Both the position numbers and the translations under genes were made by a program. The notes beneath the pieces are model-generated. The model saw only the letters and a list, made by a program, of their open reading frames with translations. It had not been told where the DNA came from and did not search any database. Shown one piece after another: positions 9,265 through 64,000 of a DNA stretch of 64,000 bases (its first letter is position 1; the number at the start of each line of letters is the position of its first letter). The stretch lies in assembly GCA_024679065.1 (NCBI GenBank), contig JAGIQG010000009.1:99386001-99450000 (forward strand). Reading direction: 5' to 3'. Source of the stretch: Sphyrna mokarran (Eukaryota).

Positions 9265-9573
9265 CTGTGAGGGCGTAGTACATACTTTCAGTACAAAATC
9301 AAGTAGAAATGCAATGCTATCTTTTCAGGTAAATCCAGGAGATAAAATTTTTTCATGTCCCGCTCCACTTAATCAGATTTCTGGAATTATTCTTGATCCG
9401 AAATTTTATAGCATTAGGTCTTGCTATCTTGCTCACAAAAGCACAGAATACCGGAAAACAATCAGGAGCAGGAGAATCGACAGTTACATCCAATTCAACG
9501 TCATTGTCATTATCCTTCTGGTAACAATTGTCCATATGCTATGAAGGACTGTTGCACCAGTTTGACAGTAAGA

Positions 9574-9738
9574 AGTCTCACAACATCAGGCTAAAGTCCA
9601 GCAGGTTTATTTGTAGCAAACATCATTAGCTCTCGGAATTTGCTGTTCCTTTGACAGGTGGAGGAATAGCCAGTTCCAAAAGCTCGTAGCGTTTGCTACA
9701 AATGAACCTGTTGAATTTTAACCCAGTGTTGTGAGACT
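9574..9738. mobile_element. Penelope-like palindromic remnant
   Basis: inverted arms agtctcacaaca...caggtttatttgtagcaaac / gtttgctacaaatgaacctg...tgttgtgagact; family assignment from recall of similar shark repeats. Confidence 0.65.
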
Positions 9739-11001
9739 CCTTGCTGTATTTATCCCAGTCCAACGCCGCCATCTTCAAATTATGAGCACCAATTTCAAGC
9801 CAGGCGTTTTGGCATTGCATATATCAAGTTTAAAACCATTCCACGCAACCAAGTAACTAGAATGCTTCAGAAATGAAGTAATAGAGATTGAATTTGGTAA
9901 AGAGATGTGTCAACGTGTCACTCTCCTAAGCTATTTTCAGTATGTTGGCATAGTATGGTCATATGTCGCCCTTAAAGATATATTATCAGTCTGTCTGTCA
10001 CGTGTATCAAATGAAAAAAGAAGTGTACGAGAAAGAAATATGCCCAAAGTATGTACTTACTGAGAATAGTTTCCGTTTAATATGATAAACTCGGTAGTTA
10101 TCTGATTTATAGGGGTTTAGTTGGGCCCAAAATCGCATGAAATTACCGTCAGCAGATAGCGGCGATAGTGGTAGGTAAATAACTGTCCGCATTGTCCAGA
10201 GACGCCAAGTCACATTTTAGTGTGGAACAGCAGATCATGGCTGATCTACGACATGAATAACTTGCCTGTGTATCAGCAAAAAATCAAATAAAATGCAGCA
10301 ACGATACCGGGCCGGATAAATACATAAGAAGTGAATAAATTAAAAGGCCGTAAGAGTATAATTTGATGTAGGGTACTCAACTCCTCGAGGCTGCTATTTC
10401 ATTCAATATGACTTTGATGATCTTTTGTAGCAACACAACTACTCCACAAATGCCATAATTCCCTTAGCATCCTAAATCCTTCGACACGAGGCTTTATTAC
10501 TCTTTCTCTCAAGGAGCATATCCTTGTTTCTCTGTCTCCCAGTGTGATGGATGTATAATTCACCCAGCCAGCATCTAAGGTTCTGCAAGATAGGAAACTC
10601 AATTTTACAGGCACGGGAGCGCTGGTTTCTCGCGAGGAGCAGGCGAGGACAGTGGGGGAAGGGTTGGGTAGTGGCGAGGGAGCGGGAGTGGGGATGTTGT
10701 TGGGGGGTGGTGATGTAAGAGTAAGTGAAATGGCGTAACCTCTCAGCCTAACACTTTAACACCGACTTCCTAGCTTAGCAGGTTAAACGATGAAATGGAA
10801 ATCAGATGTCAGATGATATTTACTGGAGAAACGGGAAATGTGTCACAATGTGATTGTCAGTATGAGTAGAGACGTCATACAATGGGGTATTACCAGTTGA
10901 AAGCAAAATGCGTACAGGACATTAACGACTTGAGCTTAGCTTTGAAAGCAGTTAGAAACAGCTGTTATTAAAAAAGTGAAGGAAACTTTTTCTTCACCAG
11001 T

Positions 11002-32137: not shown

Positions 32138-32164
32138 CACTTTCTTTCTCACTGAACGCTTTTT
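32138..32164 (-). CDS. 27-nt microexon EKAFSEKES
   Basis: tcttcactgcacag|AAAAAGCGTTCAGTGAGAAAGAAAGTG|gtaagt. Confidence 0.9.
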
Positions 32165-35794: not shown

Positions 35795-37354
35795 TTCTCA
35801 TTGAAATAATAAGCTGCTTCCTGATTGTTCTTGACAAGATGCACAATTTCACATTCTCTAACTTTGTTCTCCATCCCCAAATTACATTTTCAAGGAACTC
35901 TAACATTTTTGTCAAAAACGATTTCCCTTTTACAAAACCATTTTTACTATGTCTAATTGCATTGAAATTTTACACGTGCCCCTATATAACCGTCTTTCTA
36001 ATGGCTTTCACCATCTTTACAAGTACTTTCGGCTAACTGTTCTATATATTCCTGTTCTCTGTGTTCCTCATTTCATGACAGGGAGTTACTTTCGTTACTT
36101 TGCAAGATGATTGAACCTTTCCAGATAATAATCATTTCTTGAAAATGAAAAGCATTAAATATACTATCTCAGTAGCAATCTCAGGATCTGTACATTCAAC
36201 AAGGAGCAGGTCTGGAGATGGATGGGGACACCACCGTCTGTAAATTTTCCTCAAATCAACAAATATTCCGACTTGTAAGTAAATCGTCATTGTAACTCTG
36301 TAAGAATTCTGAAATTCCATTTTTAATGGAACTATGTGTGTGACTGCAGATATTCAGGAAAACTATCTGCCATAACAATCAGAAACATAAATGGGGATAA
36401 AGTTTCAACAGCTGGCCATTTACTCCAGGAGTGCGCTTACTAATTCTAAAAATCTAGAACAGTGAAACTTCCGGTTAGTATGCTAAATATCGAATTCAAT
36501 AGGATTTCATTTTGTCAAGATATTGTGTCACGTCATCTAAATTCTGGGAAGGTGTGTATTTGCACTCCAGCTATTCTCATGGAACTGCATCAATTTTCTG
36601 CATTTTCTTCAAAGAATGAAGTTTCTTCACCAGAGCGAGAAAACCAAATTGTGCAATATCCTCTAGGTATGGTCTCAGGAAGTTCCTATACCTTGCAGTA
36701 CAAGTTTTTCTTTTAGTTTGTAATGCCTATTGATTCTATGTAAACATAGAATTGTAAACATTAACTTACTCTTCGAATTGCTTATTTTGCTTTCGCGTCA
36801 TCGTTCTATGATTTGTGACTAAGGACACACAGGCCTCTTGAATGCGAACATTTACTACTTTCTCGCTTTAGAAATTATTTGTCTTTTCCTTTTCCGACCA
36901 AGTTGGTCATCAGCACCTTCCTCAGTAGTGTATCCCAGTTGCTACCACGTGCCCATTCATTGCGTGACTAATTCATTTTGTTTTTTGTTCACACATGAAA
37001 ACGTGGTTTCGTACCCAACATTGTAATTCCTCCAACTTGGAAAAGTTTCTCATAATTTCCTCAACTAGACTCTGACATTGACTGTAAATCGCTAAGGCTT
37101 AAGCATCTTTCTTTGTAGCGTCTCGCTGGAAAGAGCTTGTTAATTGTCTTCCTTTTGTCCCTCATCGGATCCTCATTCTAATGTATAAACTTCCAACTTA
37201 CTGAACATAGTATTGCGTAATTTCTAATTTTTTATTGGAACTAATCAAACGTTTACTTTTTTAGAAAATAAACTCCCTCATATGCCGGTCATTTACATGT
37301 ATTAATCCTGTCAAATGACATTTTATTCTTCTAAACACGCGCCAATAATTAAGA

Positions 37355-37960
37355 ACGCAAATGGCATCCTTTATTAACAGAAGCATGGTTTCAGCGTAGG
37401 AAGGTTATTTGGAACTATATAAATGGTTGCTGAGGCAACAGCCCTATGAAAATATTATAGAGAATTGGTATTATTGGAGGGCTGTTAAAACATTGGAAAG
37501 GGTGCAAAATGATTTACCAGGATGTTGCCTTGGCTGGAAAGTTTTAGATATCAGTTGACATGGCACCGACTGTTTTTGTTTGGAGCAGCGAGGACAGTTT
37601 TGAGATCTATAAACGTGTGAGCGGAATAGGTAGGCAGGAAGAAACATTTCCCCTTGATGGGTGGATGAATGACTAGGGAGCATAGAATTAAGGAACGGGT
37701 AGGATGTTTAAAGGGGATGTGCAGCAAAAACAAAAAACGTTTTTACCAAAAGATGGTGGGGGTCTCGGGTTCATTGCTCGAAAGGATAGTGGAGGCAAAG
37801 ACTGTCATAATATTTAAGACACATTTAGATGTACTTTTGAGATGCCAAGTCATACAGGACTACGTATGAATTTCTGGAAAATGGGACTGGGATAGCTAAT
37901 TAATTTGTCTTTACTGAAACATACATGACGGGCTGAAAGGCTTTTCCTGCTTTTAGACAT
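37355..37960 (+). mobile_element. Old CR1 3' fragment
   Basis: ttggaaagggtgcaa...tttaccaggatgttgcc, RFYQKMVGV. Confidence 0.75.
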
Positions 37961-38170
37961 ACATACCTGTGCGATTCAGTTGTCAATTTCTAAATTAGAG
38001 GTTTTAGCATCCATCTTACTACTGGTGTCAGGTGAATTGACCTGCATTTTTTTGTCCCGTTCCTTCCTTCAACAGCAGAATGACTTTTCCTACCTGCCAT
38101 AGATGCTTCTGCAATCCAAGGAGTTCTGGACAATCATAAACAACCCAATACTACCTATCAAGCCTATTGC

Positions 38171-38871
38171 TGTTATTACTTAAGTTTAATTTTCACTCTA
38201 TTATTCCAAAATGTAGACATTGATTCTACATGGAGATGAAGGCTTAAACGTATTTGTGCACTGTTGTGACATAAATATTGAAGTAAAAGTTATTTGTTTA
38301 TTTCTCACCCGTATCTTTCAGACTTTTTCTCAGTTGGTCTATTTCTGGAAAATCAAATCAGAGCTCTTAGGCTATTATCTCTTAATGTCTAATACATCAC
38401 ATTTTATTGTTCCTTAATTATATTGTGAAATTTTCAGTGTCTTTTTTTTACAGGGGTTTGTAAAGTTAATAGGATGGCATCCCTGAAGTACTTAATATTG
38501 TAACTGCTTAGCATGAATAGTGTCTAACTAGTCTTTTTGGTTGATAACAAAATTAAGACTAGGTAAAATATATCCCATTTACGAAGAGAAAGGAAAAGAG
38601 AGACCAGGAACTATTGAGGTTATGTATCATACTACTCCAAAATTGCTTGTGAAAAACTTATTTTGCATCGCGTTTAAATTATCTGAGGTAGCTGCATATT
38701 AGGTTAATGTTAAAATAACTGAAACCATCTATGTAGGGAAATAAACAAATAACTTTTACTTCAATATTTATGTCACAACAGTGCACAAATACGTTTAAGC
38801 CTTCATCTCCACGTAGAATCAATGTCTACATTTTGGAATAATAGAGTGAAAATTAAACTTAAGTAATAACA
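38171..38871. repeat. 134-bp inverted repeat (38171-38304 / 38738-38871), 433-bp spacer
   Basis: arms compared by eye: one mismatch (ctacatgg vs ccacgtag). Confidence 0.97.
38309..38344 (-). CDS. 36-nt microexon EIDQLRKSLKDT
   Basis: gatttgattttccag|AAATAGACCAA...GATACGG|gtgaga; lies inside the loop of a 134-bp inverted repeat. Confidence 0.88.
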
Positions 38872-41800
38872 TTGTGCAAATAATGACTAACGGTATAATA
38901 CAATATCACAAAAAAGATGGCTTTGGACGTGAACCATTTCAAAAATAGAACACAATGACTCGGAATTCATTGTATCCTACGTGGTTGCAATTCCAGGAGA
39001 TAGAACATTAAATCAGAATATCCCTGGCTATCCACTTAAGGTCAATTGAGGTAGTGCCAAGGCAACAGTGAGCAATATTACCAAGTGCACAAAACGGTCT
39101 GTTGAATATTTCGAAAATGTAATTTCTCAGACATTCGGTGCCTCGGGCGCATTTCAGCGTGTAGTATCTGACATGTGCAATCACTTCCAATCGGCTGAAT
39201 ATTAAGCATATGGCCACCCAATGGATCAAATTCTCAAATGGAGAGCCATAATAATACGAGAAATATCTTGATTTTTCACATGTCCAAAGCATAATTGACT
39301 GTCGGCAGATAGTCAACAGATCTTTCCGAGGCCGCTGAAGTTTTTTCATCAACTGGAGGAGATATAATTCTATTATTGTCTAAATGGTATGTGAGCACCA
39401 GCATGTTCTTTATCCCATAGCAGTCGTGACATGTGCTTTCTCAGATAATCTGTCACGTAATCATGTGATCTGACGTTTATCTCCTCTCCGAAAGCCACTG
39501 CACTATAGGGTGTATAAGTGAAAAGATGGCTCCTGAAATCGGATTGAAATCACCCCTTGAAGTATAGGGACAGTTGCAAACCGACGGCTATCAGGCGATA
39601 TGTCTATTCAGCTCATTTGTATAACATGTGGGTGGCACTCCGTATTATGCCCCAATAAGGGTTTCTTGGATTATTCTTATCAACTGAACAATTTATTTTC
39701 TTCAGTTATCGTGCGAGCGATCCCATACTGTGGGCCCAATCATGGCCCGTGAGAATTTGTTAGGCGACGGTACTGATGAAAAACCAAAGTCTAGTCATAG
39801 CTTCAAACTCAGCCTGCTATACTTTTCAAGATCTTAGCACGGGTCAGGCATGCTAAGGTTTTCATGCTCATTGCTGCACTTTACTTTCTCATTGCAGGTT
39901 CACTGCTGATCGCTATCTTCTGAGAGCTGAGACGATCCTGCTCATGAGAGCTTTGCGCAGCTCCGCGAGCTTTTCCAATGAATAGAATCTGTTATGATCA
40001 ACCCCAAGCAACTCATAGCCTCGTAACCTTCCCCAAACGTACGCATGGACGCCCACATACCGTTAGTCGATAAATAAATTTCCAAGTGTAATACCGTGAT
40101 GTATTACTCTTTTTCCGAGTGCGCCTTTCTGATGCATCTCCCTCCCTCACTTCGTACTACTCACTTCTTCCCTTTCCCATCTTGCCACCGTCTATTACCA
40201 ATTGTAGTGCAAGCAAGTTGTTTGTTCAGAGGAATAGGGTTTGCAACTCGGCGAATCAAGGGATGCAGGAAAGGATAAGCACATTGACTTAAAAGCCAAG
40301 ATTGCGTTTGAACGGAGGGGCAAGCATGACAGCCAGATAGCCTACGCTTGTTTCATTTCATTGCGCCCTGTTTCCTGGTCAAGGCTTCACTTTTATTTTT
40401 CTAGCATCCTGCCTCGAGAACCTGGGAACAGTGTGAAGCCTCCTCTGTTTCCAAAGCAACCTGAAGTACTTGTGTCACTTGCAAAGCATTGGAAAAACCG
40501 CTGGCAACACAACAGTTCCGTAACACGTGCTCTGGATGCAGCCTAGTGTCATATTTGACAGCCGTTGCTTAGTGTCAAGTTGCCTGTTATAGATCATAGA
40601 CAAAGTTTGACAGTACACTGACAGCTCCAATGAACTGATGCTTTCTCCAAGACACCGTGTTTAGCAGTCTCAATAGTTAATTGGCCTGCATGCTGTTCTC
40701 ATTTCAGTACAAATTTGTTTCTCCTTACACTACAATTCTTGCGAATCATTCCTATGAGTAAAAGGCGAAACGCCTCGAGAAATATTTGTTCTTCTTTCAA
40801 CAATATTCAATTAACACAAAAAAAGAAAATGCTTCCAGTTTCGCCTAGCGCCGGGACCTGCCAGTCCTCCCGAAAGTCCATGGAATTTTTCGCCGACTGT
40901 GTATTCTCCCATGGCTGGTCCCATCACGGCGGGGGGCAGAATAATATTTAGTGTATCAATCATTGTGTCTGCTATTATATACCAGTTGCCTTCATATTCA
41001 ACGCATCCAACAAAAAGATATTATCAAATTGGCGAATAATGAAATATTTAGTTCCATTCGATTGAAAACTCTTACATGAAATAACCGAAACTGTCAGTGT
41101 ATTTAATTGATTCACTTGGAATCTTGAATTGAAACAAGTATTGCTAAGCAGTGTTTACCATCTGCAAGACACAGTATTAGAACTCACAAATATTTATTCC
41201 AAAGCACCTTCAAAACTGACGACTGTTGCCATCTAGAATAACATGGATAGCAGCTACATGGGAAGGATAGCGAGTAGAAGTTTCCCTGCAAATCTCTCGC
41301 CATCCTGAATGGGAAATGCATCCCTCTTCTTCATTTCCTCTGGGGCAAAGTTCTGTAATTTTTTTTCTAACAGCATTGCAGAATAACGCACACTGCTTTG
41401 ACCGCAGCGTTTCAAGAAAATATCTCGCCCCCACCTTCTTGGAAGTAATTATAAATAGGATATCAATAATGCTAGTTCAGCAAGAAATACTTTTATCTCC
41501 TGCAGAAGAAATAAACCACTTCAAACTGTTTTATTGCCCATTTTATACACATTGAGCCCTTGGCCCTGCATACTCAGTTACTGATTTCCAACTTTCACTC
41601 CCATTTTTCCTTTCCCTCTAGAATCATGCTGTCAGCGTTCTAACTCGCAGCAAAGCATACTGAACCACTCTTGAGCCGTTTCAGCAAATATTAGCACTCG
41701 TGTATTACGTCGTAACTCTGGTAAACCGTACAGTCTCTCGATACACTGGACAGACCCGGACCAGAATCACTTCAAACGCTCCCCAAATATAAATCAGTTT

Positions 41801-43021: not shown

Positions 43022-43057
43022 CTGATAATTGCATAATATCTTTCAGGTTTTCGATGT
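43022..43057 (-). CDS. 36-nt microexon DIENLKDIMQLS
   Basis: ttttctttttcag|ACATCGAAAAC...TTATCAG|gtataa. Confidence 0.88.
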
Positions 43058-44465
43058 CTGAAAAAGAAAATCGGGTGAAACTTACCTAGCTTTGATTTCA
43101 TGTTTAATCACTTGATAGGAAAAAACATACATTTGATAGTATCCTTGTCCAACCGATGTTGTATATGTCTTACAAATTGAGCTTTTTTTAATCACCAAGC
43201 AGAATATGAGGCAAGGGGAGTAGTGAATAAACTGACAATAGATGCTGTCAGAACAAAGAGTCATGGACGGAATATTCTGGCCTTTCAAGCCTGAGGAACC
43301 TGGGTGTCATCATTCCCACCACGAGTTTCATTGTGGAGTGTGACGCATTCAAAGGGAAACCCCGTTTACAACGGTGAGGCCAGTAGGTGCCGCTGCGAAC
43401 ATGCGGAGTGTTTGGTGAAAATGGTAGAATGGTTGAGGGGAATATACGGCTTCTTCTGTCACATTTGGCATTGTGAAGGATCAATTCACATTGTCATTGT
43501 TCCAACCGTCCGTCACTCTGCAACTTCTTGTTTTTCGGAGCTACTTCCCCCTGAATGCCTCTATCGAATTATCTTCACTATACTCTCAGTACAGTGCATC
43601 GTCATCGCGCCGTTTATTCTTTGGCTACTCATGTGAAATCAAATAGATTTTAAAAAATCATGGAATAAATTAAGTAACACCTGTGCTTAACAACGTGCTG
43701 ACATTAGTCTATTTGCAGTTCTTGCAGGATAACTCACTTTAAAGGCTGCAGTAAGAAGTAAACATAATGCAGATATAAACAACCCGGAGTTGAAATTGAA
43801 AACCTCTTTTTTTGAAGAATTAACATTTCATTGGTGAAATATATGCTGGAAAATTAAATACAAAGGAATAAAGATTATAGTTGCACTTGAAATCTGCATG
43901 GACATGATTAGTAAGTCTGTTCTGTTTTATTTTATTGATGTACTATCGCATTTAAATATTGTCTAAGTGCAATTTCTGCCGTGTGAAGCTTGATAGCATG
44001 CAACCTGTTCTGACATTAGAATAGGATTAGCGTTGGTCGCCTTTTCTCGTTCCAGGCAAACATTTTTTTTAAAAATGTTCATGAATTACAAACAAATGAT
44101 GCAAAAGTATATTATAGTCTAAATAATCTTACTCATACAACGATGCTGATATTACTGTATGGGGTTGTTGGGGGGGGGGGATGGCGACAAACGGATGTTC
44201 GGCTAGTTATTATTATCTTCATACCCTATAACTTTCTCCTAGCCTTCAACTCTTCATCTTGTGTCCAAATATGAAGGCAAAAACGAATAGCTTGTTAGAA
44301 TATATGCTCTCCATCAATGGATTAACTAATCTTGCATAGAGATATAACCACACATTATATTTATAGAAAAAATACTTTTGGATCTTATTAATGTTTAACA
44401 TGTTGTAAATGCACCAACTTGTAATATAAACAGAACCGCATGTTTCTTTGTATGTTTTCTTTTAC

Positions 44466-44501
44466 CTGAGAGTTTTATAAGTTTATTAAGATGTTCAATT
44501 T
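44466..44501 (-). CDS. 36-nt microexon EIEHLNKLIKLS
   Basis: attatttttgtcag|AAATTGAACAT...CTCTCAG|gtaaaa. Confidence 0.88.
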
Positions 44502-45034: not shown

Positions 45035-46375
45035 ATCAAGTTTTTTCAAGGAAGTGACGAAGATGACTGATGAGATAGGAAAGAGCGTGTTGTCTACATG
45101 GACTTCAGTAAAGCTTTTGATAAGACTGGTGCATAAGGTGACGTCGCATGGAATTAGTGCTGAGCTGGCCAGATTGGTACTGAACTGGCTTGATCATAGA
45201 AGGCAGAGGTCAGCAGTGGAACTGTGTGTTTCTGAATGGAGGGCTGTAACAAGTGGCGTTCCTCAGGGATCAGTGATGGAATCTTTGCTGTTTGTTTTTT
45301 ATATATATATAATATGAATAATTTGGAGGAAAATGTAACTGGCTTGATTAGCAAGTTTGGCCACAACACAAAGGCTGGTGGGTTCACGGATATCAATGAG
45401 GACAATCAGAGGATATAGCAGGATATGGATCGATTGGAGATTTGGGCGGACAGATTGCGGATGGAATTTAATCCAAACCAATGTGACGTAATGCATTTTA
45501 GAAGACCTAATACAGATATGAAATATTCATTAAAGGGCAGAACCCTTAAGAGTATTGATAAGCAGAAGGATATGGGTGTACAGGTGCACAGGTAACGCAG
45601 GTGAAGAAAGTAGTCAAGAAGGCATAAGGCATACTTGCCTTCATTGGCTGGAGCATTGAGTTAAAAAATTGGCAGATCATGTTGCAGCTTTATTGAACCT
45701 TAGTTTGGTTGCACTTGGATTATAGTATTCAATTCTGGTCACCACACTACCAGAAGGATGGGGAGCCTTTGGAGAGGGTACAGAAAAGTTTTACCAGGGT
45801 GTTGGCTGGTATGGAGGGTATTAGCTATAGGAGAGGTTGGGGAAAATTAGTTTGTTCTCACTGGGATAACGGAAATTGAGGGCCACCTGGTAGAAGGCTA
45901 CAAGATTATGAGGGGCATGGACATAATGGATAATCAATGGATAATTAAAAGCTTTTCCTCGGGGCGTAAGTTAATTACTAGGGAGCATACGTTTAAGGTG
46001 CGAGGGACAAGGTTTAGAGGAGATGTATGCAGCAAGTTTTTTTTTGCATAGACGAATTTTCAAACATCATTTTTCCTTGCTTTCATTACGCCGCGTTTAT
46101 GCAAATGACAATACAGCTGGACTATTGAGTATTACATTTCATTACGTCAAACAAGTGTGACATAAATATTTCGAAGTGTGTGCCTGGAACTTGCTGCCGT
46201 GGGAAGCAGTGGACTAGATACGTTAGTGACTTTTAATGCGCATCTTGACAAATGCATAAATAGGAATGGAATGGAGGGGCATTGTCCCTGGAAGATAGGT
46301 AGTTTTAGTTCGGCGCATGATTGGTGTGGGCTTGGAGGGTAGAATGGCTTATTCCTGTACAGTACTTTTTTTCTT
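45035..46375 (+). mobile_element. CR1 3' portion (RT C-terminus), degenerate
   Basis: GVPQGSV, SKFGHNTK, ttctggtcaccacactac; interrupted at 46054-46176. Confidence 0.9.
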
Positions 46376-46711
46376 CGTTGAAATAAGAAAGGCTATTCGT
46401 GTACACTTGGCTGACATATTGTTGAATTTGAGCCTTGATCGTCGAGGTGCATTCTATGTCACGTAGGCATAAATATAATAATTTCCACTGACAGTACTTT
46501 TCACCATTATTTCACGAGTAATCACACTTAATCTGAGGCTAGGCTGGATATTAGGTGCATCATTGTTAATAAAAAAAACCTCTGGTTCTTCGAAATATTT
46601 ATGCCATATTTGTTCAACGTAACGAAATGTAACACTCAATAGTCTAGCTGTAGTTGCCATTTGCATAAACACTGCGTGATGGAAGCAAGGAAAAATGATG
46701 TTTGAAAATTC
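46054..46711. repeat. ~123-bp inverted repeat (46054-46176 / 46588-46711), ~411-bp spacer
   Basis: gaattttcaaacatcatttttccttgc...ataaatatttcgaag is the reverse complement of cttcgaaatatttatg...ggaaaaatgatgtttgaaaattc, with scattered mismatches. Confidence 0.93.
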
Positions 46712-47328
46712 TTCCCAAAGTCACAGATGAGGGAATAGGGCTGCACTTCTAATGAAGAATGACAATGTAGGAATAACTTGCAATTTCACTTGAAGTCAGT
46801 AAATCAGATGTCATTCAGGCCTGCGATATCCTAATACGTTAAATACGATTTATCTGGACTGTATTTGCCTCATAAACGAATCAATTTCGGGTTTGAAAAA
46901 GAGTGAAAGTTGCCAAACATACTTTGCGATTGAGTCTCGAGTGGCGTTGATAATCTCAGTTCCCAGAACATTAGGAAGTCGAAATTTCTGTTTTATTTTA
47001 CAGATTCACTCTACGGTTCACAATATAGAGCGACAGTAATGTTACTGCCTGGTATTGACGCCATTTTGAGCCAGAATATTGCATAAATTACGCGAGGCAC
47101 AGTCAGTGCAATGCTCATAAGCATGCATAACTTTTTTTTAAAAACAATAATTGTTCTGTTAATGTGTGCAACTATATTCAGATATGGCTTTATAAAAGAA
47201 TATGAAAATAACATGGCTAAAATGAGTGCGCGGATTTAGATCACATGAACCCGTTTTAATACTGGCATTGGGGAAACATTTCAGGATATTTAAATTGTAA
47301 AATAAAATAAAGGTCTGCTGAGACTTAC

Positions 47329-62760: not shown

Positions 62761-63261
62761 AAAGGGTTATGCATATTACGTGTGTAAATATCAATGAATT
62801 GTGCTACCTTTTATAATAGCACTGAATGCGTAACAGACTGGACTAATTGAACAACCTCATATTCTTCCCATTTTCTTGCCTCTCCACTGAATACTGGAAT
62901 TGATTATCATCGGCTGCGGTGTTTCTTCCCTAGTCTGCCTTAACAATCAAGAATGGTTGGGGGTCATTGATCTGTAAGGAACACAGATTCATCAGCCTTC
63001 AAGGATCTTAAACCCCTTTTCCGCAACGAGAAGTGAAAGCAAACAACACATACACGTGGCCTATTTGTGCCACGATTAAGACGTGGATATCAACCACAAT
63101 ATTTAGGAATAAAACGGACCTGATTTCTTAGCGGTTCAAACTAAAGATGAACTAGTTTGGCGACATCAGTATTGTATTTTCCATAAAAATCTCGCATCCT
63201 TATCCTAATTGCAATGGTTGTGACTTAACCTTTTTTTTGGGAAATATAGCTGCAAATGGCT

Positions 63262-64000
63262 CTAGCCATTTCAGAGACTTGGGTAGAGCAGGGACAGGAA
63301 TGGATGTTGCAGGTTCCGGGGTACAAATGCTTTAGTCGGAGTAGAGAAGGAGGTAGAAGGGGGGGAGGAGTGGCGTTATTGGTCAAAGACTGTATCACGG
63401 TGATAGAAAAGAAGTTTGATGAGGACTTGTCTGTTGAGGTAGTATGGGCTGAGATTAGAAACAGGAGAGGAGAGGTCACCCTGTTGGGAGTCTTTTACAG
63501 ACCTCCTAATAGTTCTAGAGAGGTTGAGGAAAGGATTGCGAAGTCAATTCTGATTAGGAGTGAAAGTAGTAGGGTAATTGTGATGGGGGACTTTAACTTT
63601 GCTAATATTGATTGGAATAGCTATAGCTCTAGCTCGTTAGAGGGGTCAGTTTTCGTACAGAGTGTGCAGGAAGGTTTTTTGACTCAGTATGTAGATAGGC
63701 CAACTAGAGGTGAGGCTACATTGGATTTGGTGCTGGGCAATGAGCCAGACCAGGTGTTAGGCTTGGAAGTTAGTGAACATTTTGGTGATAGTGACCACAA
63801 TTCGGTTACGTTCACCTTAGTGATGGACAGGGATAGGCATGAAGCTGGGGGCTGTAGTTATAGCTGGGGGAAGGGTAATTATGAGGCCATCAGGAGAGAA
63901 TTAGGGTGCATAGATTGGACTAGGGAACTACAGGGACTGGGAACATCTGGAATGTGGTGCTTATTCAAGGAGCAGCTGCTGCGAGTCCTTGATAAGTATG
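63262..64000 (+). mobile_element. Young CR1 LINE ORF2, APE endonuclease domain, open to the window end
   Basis: AISETW, GGGVALLVK, GVFYRPP, VMGDFN, LDLVL, FGDSDH; no stop from 63250 to 64000 (absent from the ORF track because it runs off the end). Confidence 0.95.

Follow-up and report, generated by a model that had tools for sequence, protein, structure and literature searches.

The window, by which we mean the whole analysed stretch of 64,000 nt from Sphyrna mokarran, contains two 134-nt arms in inverted orientation that bracket a 36-nt coding exon. The explanation that fits best, and that we hold with somewhat more confidence than doubt, is that the pair arose by a local inverted duplication, that it may cause partial skipping of the enclosed exon by loop-out, and that it is tolerated. 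The pair is real and well formed, it belongs to an ordinary class, and it would act at most like the insRCS2 allele of mouse Tbxt. The gene family to which the host belongs, whose members each comprise about 70 symmetric microexons and lack any named domain, may merit more attention than the hairpin.

The inverted pair and its support in reads

With 134 nt per arm and a spacing of 433 nt, the two arms form the top inverted pair in the window (Table 1). Self-comparison of the window agrees with an earlier note on this DNA, according to which the arms differ at one base, and the two bases of this sole mismatch (38230 A versus 38812 C) can still pair, as G·U, in the pre-mRNA of the minus strand, so that all 134 arm positions pair. 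The note was also right that the loop of 433 nt contains the exon 38309-38344, which is backed by two catshark proteins, and that one arm begins within the donor: the donor reads CGG/GTGAGA with +1 at 38308, and the left arm therefore starts at +5. Its further statement that the arms resemble no transposon in this window accords with a search of the 2.77-Gb own genome, in which very common words were skipped and both arm matches (2/2) fell at this locus; an equivalent search with the 1.5-kb region around the arms returned this locus alone. At the outer ends of the arms the flanks differ, and neither a target-site duplication nor a poly(A) stretch was found there.

Table 1. Coordinates of the inverted pairs, the looped exon and neighbouring features (window positions unless prefixed)
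Feature	Position	Strand	Description
Left arm	38171..38304	-	3' arm of the pre-mRNA hairpin; intron +5 to +138 past the exon donor
Right arm	38738..38871	-	5' arm of the hairpin; upstream intron, ends 393 nt before the acceptor
Loop	38305..38737	-	433 nt; branch region, acceptor, exon, donor +1..+4
Looped exon	38309..38344	-	36 nt, coding, phase 1-1, IDQLRKSLKDT; paralogue lacks it
Upstream neighbour exon	43022..43057	-	36 nt; 4677-nt intron to looped exon
Downstream neighbour exon	32138..32164	-	27 nt; 6144-nt intron from looped exon
Left flank	37983..38040	.	In the paralogue adjoins the counterpart of the right flank (about 38860-39102)
Second pair, left arm	46051..46176	.	88%; older inverted copy, sits in CR1-type LINE, exon-free loop
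Second pair, right arm	46588..46714	.	Template of the inverted copy
305-nt pair	L067:9186-9490 / L068:497-801		99.0%, 1006 nt apart, single-locus, exon-free loop

Reads came from one listed DNA run, X1, which is possibly the source of the assembly itself. The X1 contigs covering 36000-38200, 38275-38767 and 38842-39327 each stop 30 nt into an arm, and a separate 134-nt arm contig has a depth of 28.4, whereas the loop is at 15.1 and the flanks are at 14.8-18. Contigs that stop inside the arms, together with an arm contig of about double depth, place both arms and all four junctions in the reads. The possibility that the second arm is an assembly artefact, which the earlier note had wished to see checked, thus retains next to no probability, even though the sole run may be the assembly's own source and the mismatch is not separately seen, as the X1 contigs show a single version of the arm, owing to a popped bubble or to an error. 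No joint without an arm occurs in the X1 contigs, which represent one individual. Five X1 joints were considered as alternative alleles and rejected, because a CR1 remnant contains four of them and because 38011>39029, the fifth, with a side of 20 nt, fits the paralogue contig.

Host gene family, looped exon and paralogue

The host is an uncharacterised shark coiled-coil gene with about 70 phase-1 microexons. A splice-site scan of 664 kb gave 164 candidate phase-1 exons of 21-36 nt on the minus strand and 25 on the plus strand. The microexons of the family, which are 21, 24, 27 or 36 nt long and in phase 1, encode, downstream of a conserved MAAPVDEYINIGT start, a long coiled coil; they occupy window positions 865-53251 and the flanks (99.17-99.85 Mb and 100.38-100.48 Mb of the contig), with at least three paralogues. 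For a 43-residue 5' exon that lies beyond the window, there are two paralogues on this contig, and a profile built from its copies matched three catshark proteins. Two of these were also the sole homologues among 7998 candidates scored in a later search, namely XP_072329363.1 from Scyliorhinus torazame (uncharacterized) and XP_038671248.1 from S. canicula (annotated as "centromere-associated protein E-like"), which share the N-terminus and the looped exon and contain the window exon peptides in the same order, with about 71% identity over 25 matched exons. As Pfam gave no family at the cut-off for the host gene product, and as there is no motor domain, the "CENP-E-like" label reflects the coiled coil alone. 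A Butyrophilin/TRIM/Ig identity was also considered and dropped, since motif scans gave no Ig or SPRY exon and since Pfam had no family at the cut-off; the sole match among protein representatives, a mosquito EGF-repeat protein, was rejected, its score being the sum of nine repeats. A literature search for this gene family found no description, which does not prove that none exists.

The part of the gene at 43022-44501 deviates from the general pattern: the exons 44466, 43022 and 38309 are three 36-nt exons in succession, which disrupts the 36+27 rhythm, and an extra unit of 21 residues is present here in S. torazame but missing from S. canicula. The extra unit and the broken rhythm suggest that modules come and go in this region of the gene.

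The peptide of the looped exon matches both catshark proteins at 10 of 11 residues, which places it among the best conserved of the gene (gene mean 71%; P about 0.13). As its order and these 10 residues are kept in two catshark proteins, this is a genuine exon of great age that has not decayed. If it were skipped, 43022 would be spliced to 32164 in frame at the cost of 12 residues, and the in-frame character that the earlier note had assigned to skipping thus holds for this exon of 36 nt and phase 1-1.

About 390 kb upstream there is a paralogous gene that is collinear with the host gene at 65-73%. Every exon neighbouring 38309-38344 has a counterpart there, and the looped exon alone has none; at about 99812570-99812870 of the same contig, the flanks are adjacent, and about 830 nt (or 0.7-0.8 kb) including the exon is absent. 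Because the catsharks, as outgroup, have the exon in the same order, it was the paralogue that lost it. The break points of the paralogue are strongly diverged; the right one is close to where the right arm ends on its outer side, which is probably chance. When the introns of sister exons were compared for arm polarity, the best z among 33 exons was 2.9, and that of the closest exon was 1.3.

Origin, age and frequency of local inverted pairs

The interpretation that suits the repeat best is a local inverted duplication of the "Inverted Dup" class, which is well supported, with a mechanism that we infer. In the description given for phase 3 of the 1000 Genomes Project, such variants are below 1 kb, lie less than 5 kb apart, are not retrotransposed, account for 54% of the sequenced human inversions, and are ascribed to replication errors (Sudmant et al. 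2015, PMC4617611). The shark pair resembles them in size (134 nt), spacing (433 nt) and non-mobile origin, as no mobile-element insertion is involved, but in contrast to those variants it is known in the derived state alone (PMC4617611). In replication or in break repair, a polymerase would have jumped about 0.4 kb to the other strand, used 134 nt of it as a template and then returned, thereby leaving an inverted copy, and a recurrent type of local mutation would have happened to bracket an exon at this position. The microhomology at the switch points of the pair, determined without a fixed arm polarity, is at most 1 nt.

How common such pairs are was assessed by a census that combined self-comparison with a low-copy filter and accepted arms of at least 35 nt with spacers below 3 kb. 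Transposon-derived, multi-copy pairs were removed, which concerned 13 of the 21 rows of one self-comparison. This left 16 low-copy local inverted pairs in 864 kb, or about one per 54 kb, with 10 in 664 kb, 3 in 100 kb at the third paralogue and 3 in 100 kb comprising two control regions. Their arms measure 39-305 nt, their spacers 411-2337 nt, and their identities range from 71 to 99%, with two pairs at 99%. The genome-wide low-copy check covered 4 of the 16 kept pairs, and all four were single-locus. The genome probably holds thousands of local inverted duplications.

The position around an exon is in line with chance. An exon lies in the loop of 2 of 10 pairs, as compared with 1.78 expected, and in one of these two loops the exon has no catshark match and is probably false; none of the three loops at the third paralogue holds an exon. 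The chance of at least one arm end lying 5 nt or less from an exon boundary is about 0.16. With exon enclosure and edge proximity both at chance level, the placement needs no special cause.

In the second inverted pair of the window, the left arm at 46051 splits a CR1 copy that is continuous elsewhere, which for this pair reveals the one-copy ancestral state indirectly, and the loop is collinear with the paralogue, as is, weakly, the right arm. In the pair at -70470, it is the left arm that is common to the paralogue. As the new arm differs between these two pairs, both polarities occur. The left arm of the 38171 pair has one 15-nt word in common with an arm of the 46051-46714 pair, and a homology of the two pairs, suggested by this word and by a 26-nt patch at equal offset, was considered and put down to chance: the two-pair alignment scores 315, where shuffles give 273±13 and unrelated segments reach 326. 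Two further elements in the window may be mentioned. An inverted pair of 86 nt with 77% identity and an 11-nt spacer at 9565-9747 is probably an old small element, and a CR1-type LINE at 63250-64000, which continues into L003, has an open frame of 897 codons; its 3' part has nearby copies at 98-99% identity, which indicates that this CR1 family was recently active.

By identity, the 38171/38738 pair is the youngest of the 16, although the 305-nt pair at 99.0%, a longer member of the class, counts as equally young. Its age can be estimated with the mutation rate of 7e-10 per base per generation that is given for the epaulette shark (PMC10587355). At this rate, one mismatch in 134 corresponds to 0.13-30 million generations, and zero mismatch to up to 20 million. 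CpG sites mutate faster, and as the arm mismatch lies at a CpG, the younger ages are favoured. That the event is very recent and possibly polymorphic does not follow from the near identity, as the age range extends to millions of generations; the X1 contigs, from one individual, contain no arm-less joint and give no sign of a second allele.

Which other origins are conceivable for such an arrangement? A transposon with terminal inverted repeats, of the MITE or Pack type, might have brought the exon in, and the arm-loop-arm form as well as the absence of the entire block from the paralogue would agree with this, but target-site duplications at the outer ends and dispersed copies are both missing, and the exon occupies the same order in two catshark proteins, so that the interior is not foreign. 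The transposon reading thus fails on target-site duplication, copy number and exon ancestry and is extremely improbable. The pair might also constitute a flippable cassette, in which recombination between the arms would invert the loop, place the exon in antisense orientation and cause a polymorphic or somatic in-frame loss at the DNA level. The geometry permits this, and the X1 contigs, being built from short words, fit either loop orientation. There is, however, no recombinase site and no sign of an inverted loop, in the pairs 46051, -70470, -140916 and 286430 the loops are in paralogue orientation where they align, and arms of 134 bp are short for efficient homologous recombination, which makes such a cassette very unlikely. 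A local inverted duplication remains the preferred origin.

Possible consequences for splicing and editing

Folding, which the earlier note had proposed as a check, gave a very stable stem with a real, in-frame exon looped out. The fold of the 801-nt region has a free energy of -293 kcal/mol (z -20.6 against 20 shuffles) with 134 of 134 positions paired, and the arm duplex has one of -213.5 kcal/mol. The arms would zip into the 134-bp helix once about 15 nt past the donor have been transcribed: at equilibrium, the helix takes the positions from +5 onward (0.92-1.0) with 15 nt past the donor, and not with 12. U1 could then still pair with -3..+4, while the 36-nt exon with its apparently weak acceptor would be held in the loop, would compete less, and would be skipped in part of the transcripts. 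The helix would probably be edited by ADAR and thereby weakened. Skipping would leave a long modular coiled coil shorter by 12 residues and in frame, which is the form found in the paralogue, where a deletion has become fixed.

On this basis, it is plausible, at about even odds, that there is partial loop-out skipping to a measurable extent. Exon-flanking arms in both introns and a stable stem are both present, and exons with weak acceptors are described as most prone to loop-out skipping (PMC13019027). The locus shares with the inverted-Alu loop-out cases the pair in flanking introns and, to judge from our simple weight matrix, the combination of a weak acceptor with a strong donor, whereas its arms are unique host sequence and not a mobile element, and its downstream intron of 6.1 kb contrasts with the shorter introns to which that paper ties skipping (PMC13019027). 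It also counts against loop-out that the flanking introns still measure 4-6 kb after looping. It is most likely that the hairpin event is tolerated rather than selected, because the skip is in frame and because the paralogue has deleted the same exon; a selected role for the hairpin is improbable.

The closest experimental parallel is mouse Tbxt, where insRCS2, an unplanned event at a CRISPR target site, placed a 220-bp reverse copy of the next intron across exon 6, at a distance of about 950 bp from the template (Xia et al. 2024, PMC10901737). In the same study, skipping was stronger with a perfect 297-bp reverse pair around Tbxt exon 6 than with an Alu pair, and for hominoid TBXT, with its AluY/AluSx1 pair, it is described that such pairs loop the exon out and lead to skipping (PMC10901737). 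As in insRCS2 and insRCS, a stretch of intron was reverse-copied to the other side of an exon, but the shark pair is natural, shorter at 134 bp, and A+T-rich; it abuts the donor of the 36-nt microexon that it encloses, this microexon belongs to a modular coiled-coil gene, and skipping is here a prediction (PMC10901737).

What else might the hairpin do, if anything? With the same DNA origin, splicing may simply be unaffected, because U1 and exon definition act first, or because hnRNPs or ADAR open the helix. This is possible, although we would not expect it. The donor ranks in the top fifth of the gene, the helix is unfavoured until +12 to +15 has been transcribed, and as a strong donor is out before the 3' arm, U1, binding during transcription, may prevail. 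That the exon is highly conserved in catsharks points in the same direction, as it has not decayed in the way a long-skipped exon might. Against an absent effect stand the stem of -213 kcal/mol with its loop of merely 433 nt and the skipping that perfect intronic reverse pairs of 220-297 bp cause at the mouse Tbxt exon (PMC10901737). It has also been suggested, in the earlier note, that the hairpin could mask U1 binding. In favour of this, the stem does pair +5 onward, with +5 to +10 engaged at 0.92-1.0, and the U1 duplex would fall from -10.4 kcal/mol to -6.8 kcal/mol if +5 were lost. Moreover, U6 requires +4..+6 at a later step. Against it, -3..+4 opens for 1.9 kcal/mol and is accessible, and opening -3..+6 costs 5.9 kcal/mol, which is within the range of two controls with shuffled upstream arms (4.0 and 6.3 kcal/mol). 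Masking of U1 is therefore marginal, and it is unlikely that the hairpin acts chiefly by hiding the 5' splice site.

Back-splicing to a circular RNA was another consequence envisaged there, and reverse-complementary matches are indeed reported to favour back-splicing and skipping alike (PMC8330042). The sole looped exon has only 36 nt, however, and the donor is within the stem from +5 onward, while short exons are described as disfavoured and single-exon circles as derived from long exons (PMC5748671, PMC11134749), so that back-splicing is disfavoured and a hairpin that drives it is highly improbable. The third suggestion, that the hairpin could be an ADAR substrate, agrees with the form of the duplex: the near-perfect stem of 134 bp contains 97 adenosines and has 27% G+C, and by the known preference of ADAR it would be a good substrate. 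Partial loop-out skipping of a tolerated hairpin remains the reading that we prefer.

A farther-reaching reading, which we regard as rather doubtful, would see in the locus a natural, transposon-free counterpart of Tbxt insRCS2. The hairpin would make a constitutive microexon alternative, so that RNA would yield the coiled coil of the paralogue, shorter by 12 residues. Local inverted duplications, at a frequency of about one per 54 kb, would then give rise to new in-frame skipping, by a route so far overlooked, in shark genes that consist of dozens of symmetric microexons. If arm-dependent skipping were true, this would be a clean natural case in which an error of repair or replication, and not a transposon, creates an alternative exon, with dozens of microexons of the same transcript and a paralogue without the same exon as a built-in control.

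The strengths of the splice sites were ranked among the 74 candidate exons in the scored span of the host gene with a simple weight matrix of our own, not with MaxEntScan. By this measure, the acceptor of the looped exon is weaker than those of 77% of the gene exons, and its donor is stronger than those of 82%. The donor would score 10.1 without the left arm, as compared with its present 9.7, and it stays GTGAG with either arm as the new copy. Two minor observations concern candidate sites nearby. At 38094-38108, 60 nt past the left arm, there is a 15-nt phase-1 candidate exon with splice scores of 7.8 and 9.6, which has no catshark protein match and is possibly a pseudo-exon. A cryptic AG at 38729 scores 6.2, as compared with 5.7 for the real acceptor; its pyrimidine tract stems from the U-rich inner end of the right arm, and the site would come to lie inside the stem once the hairpin forms.
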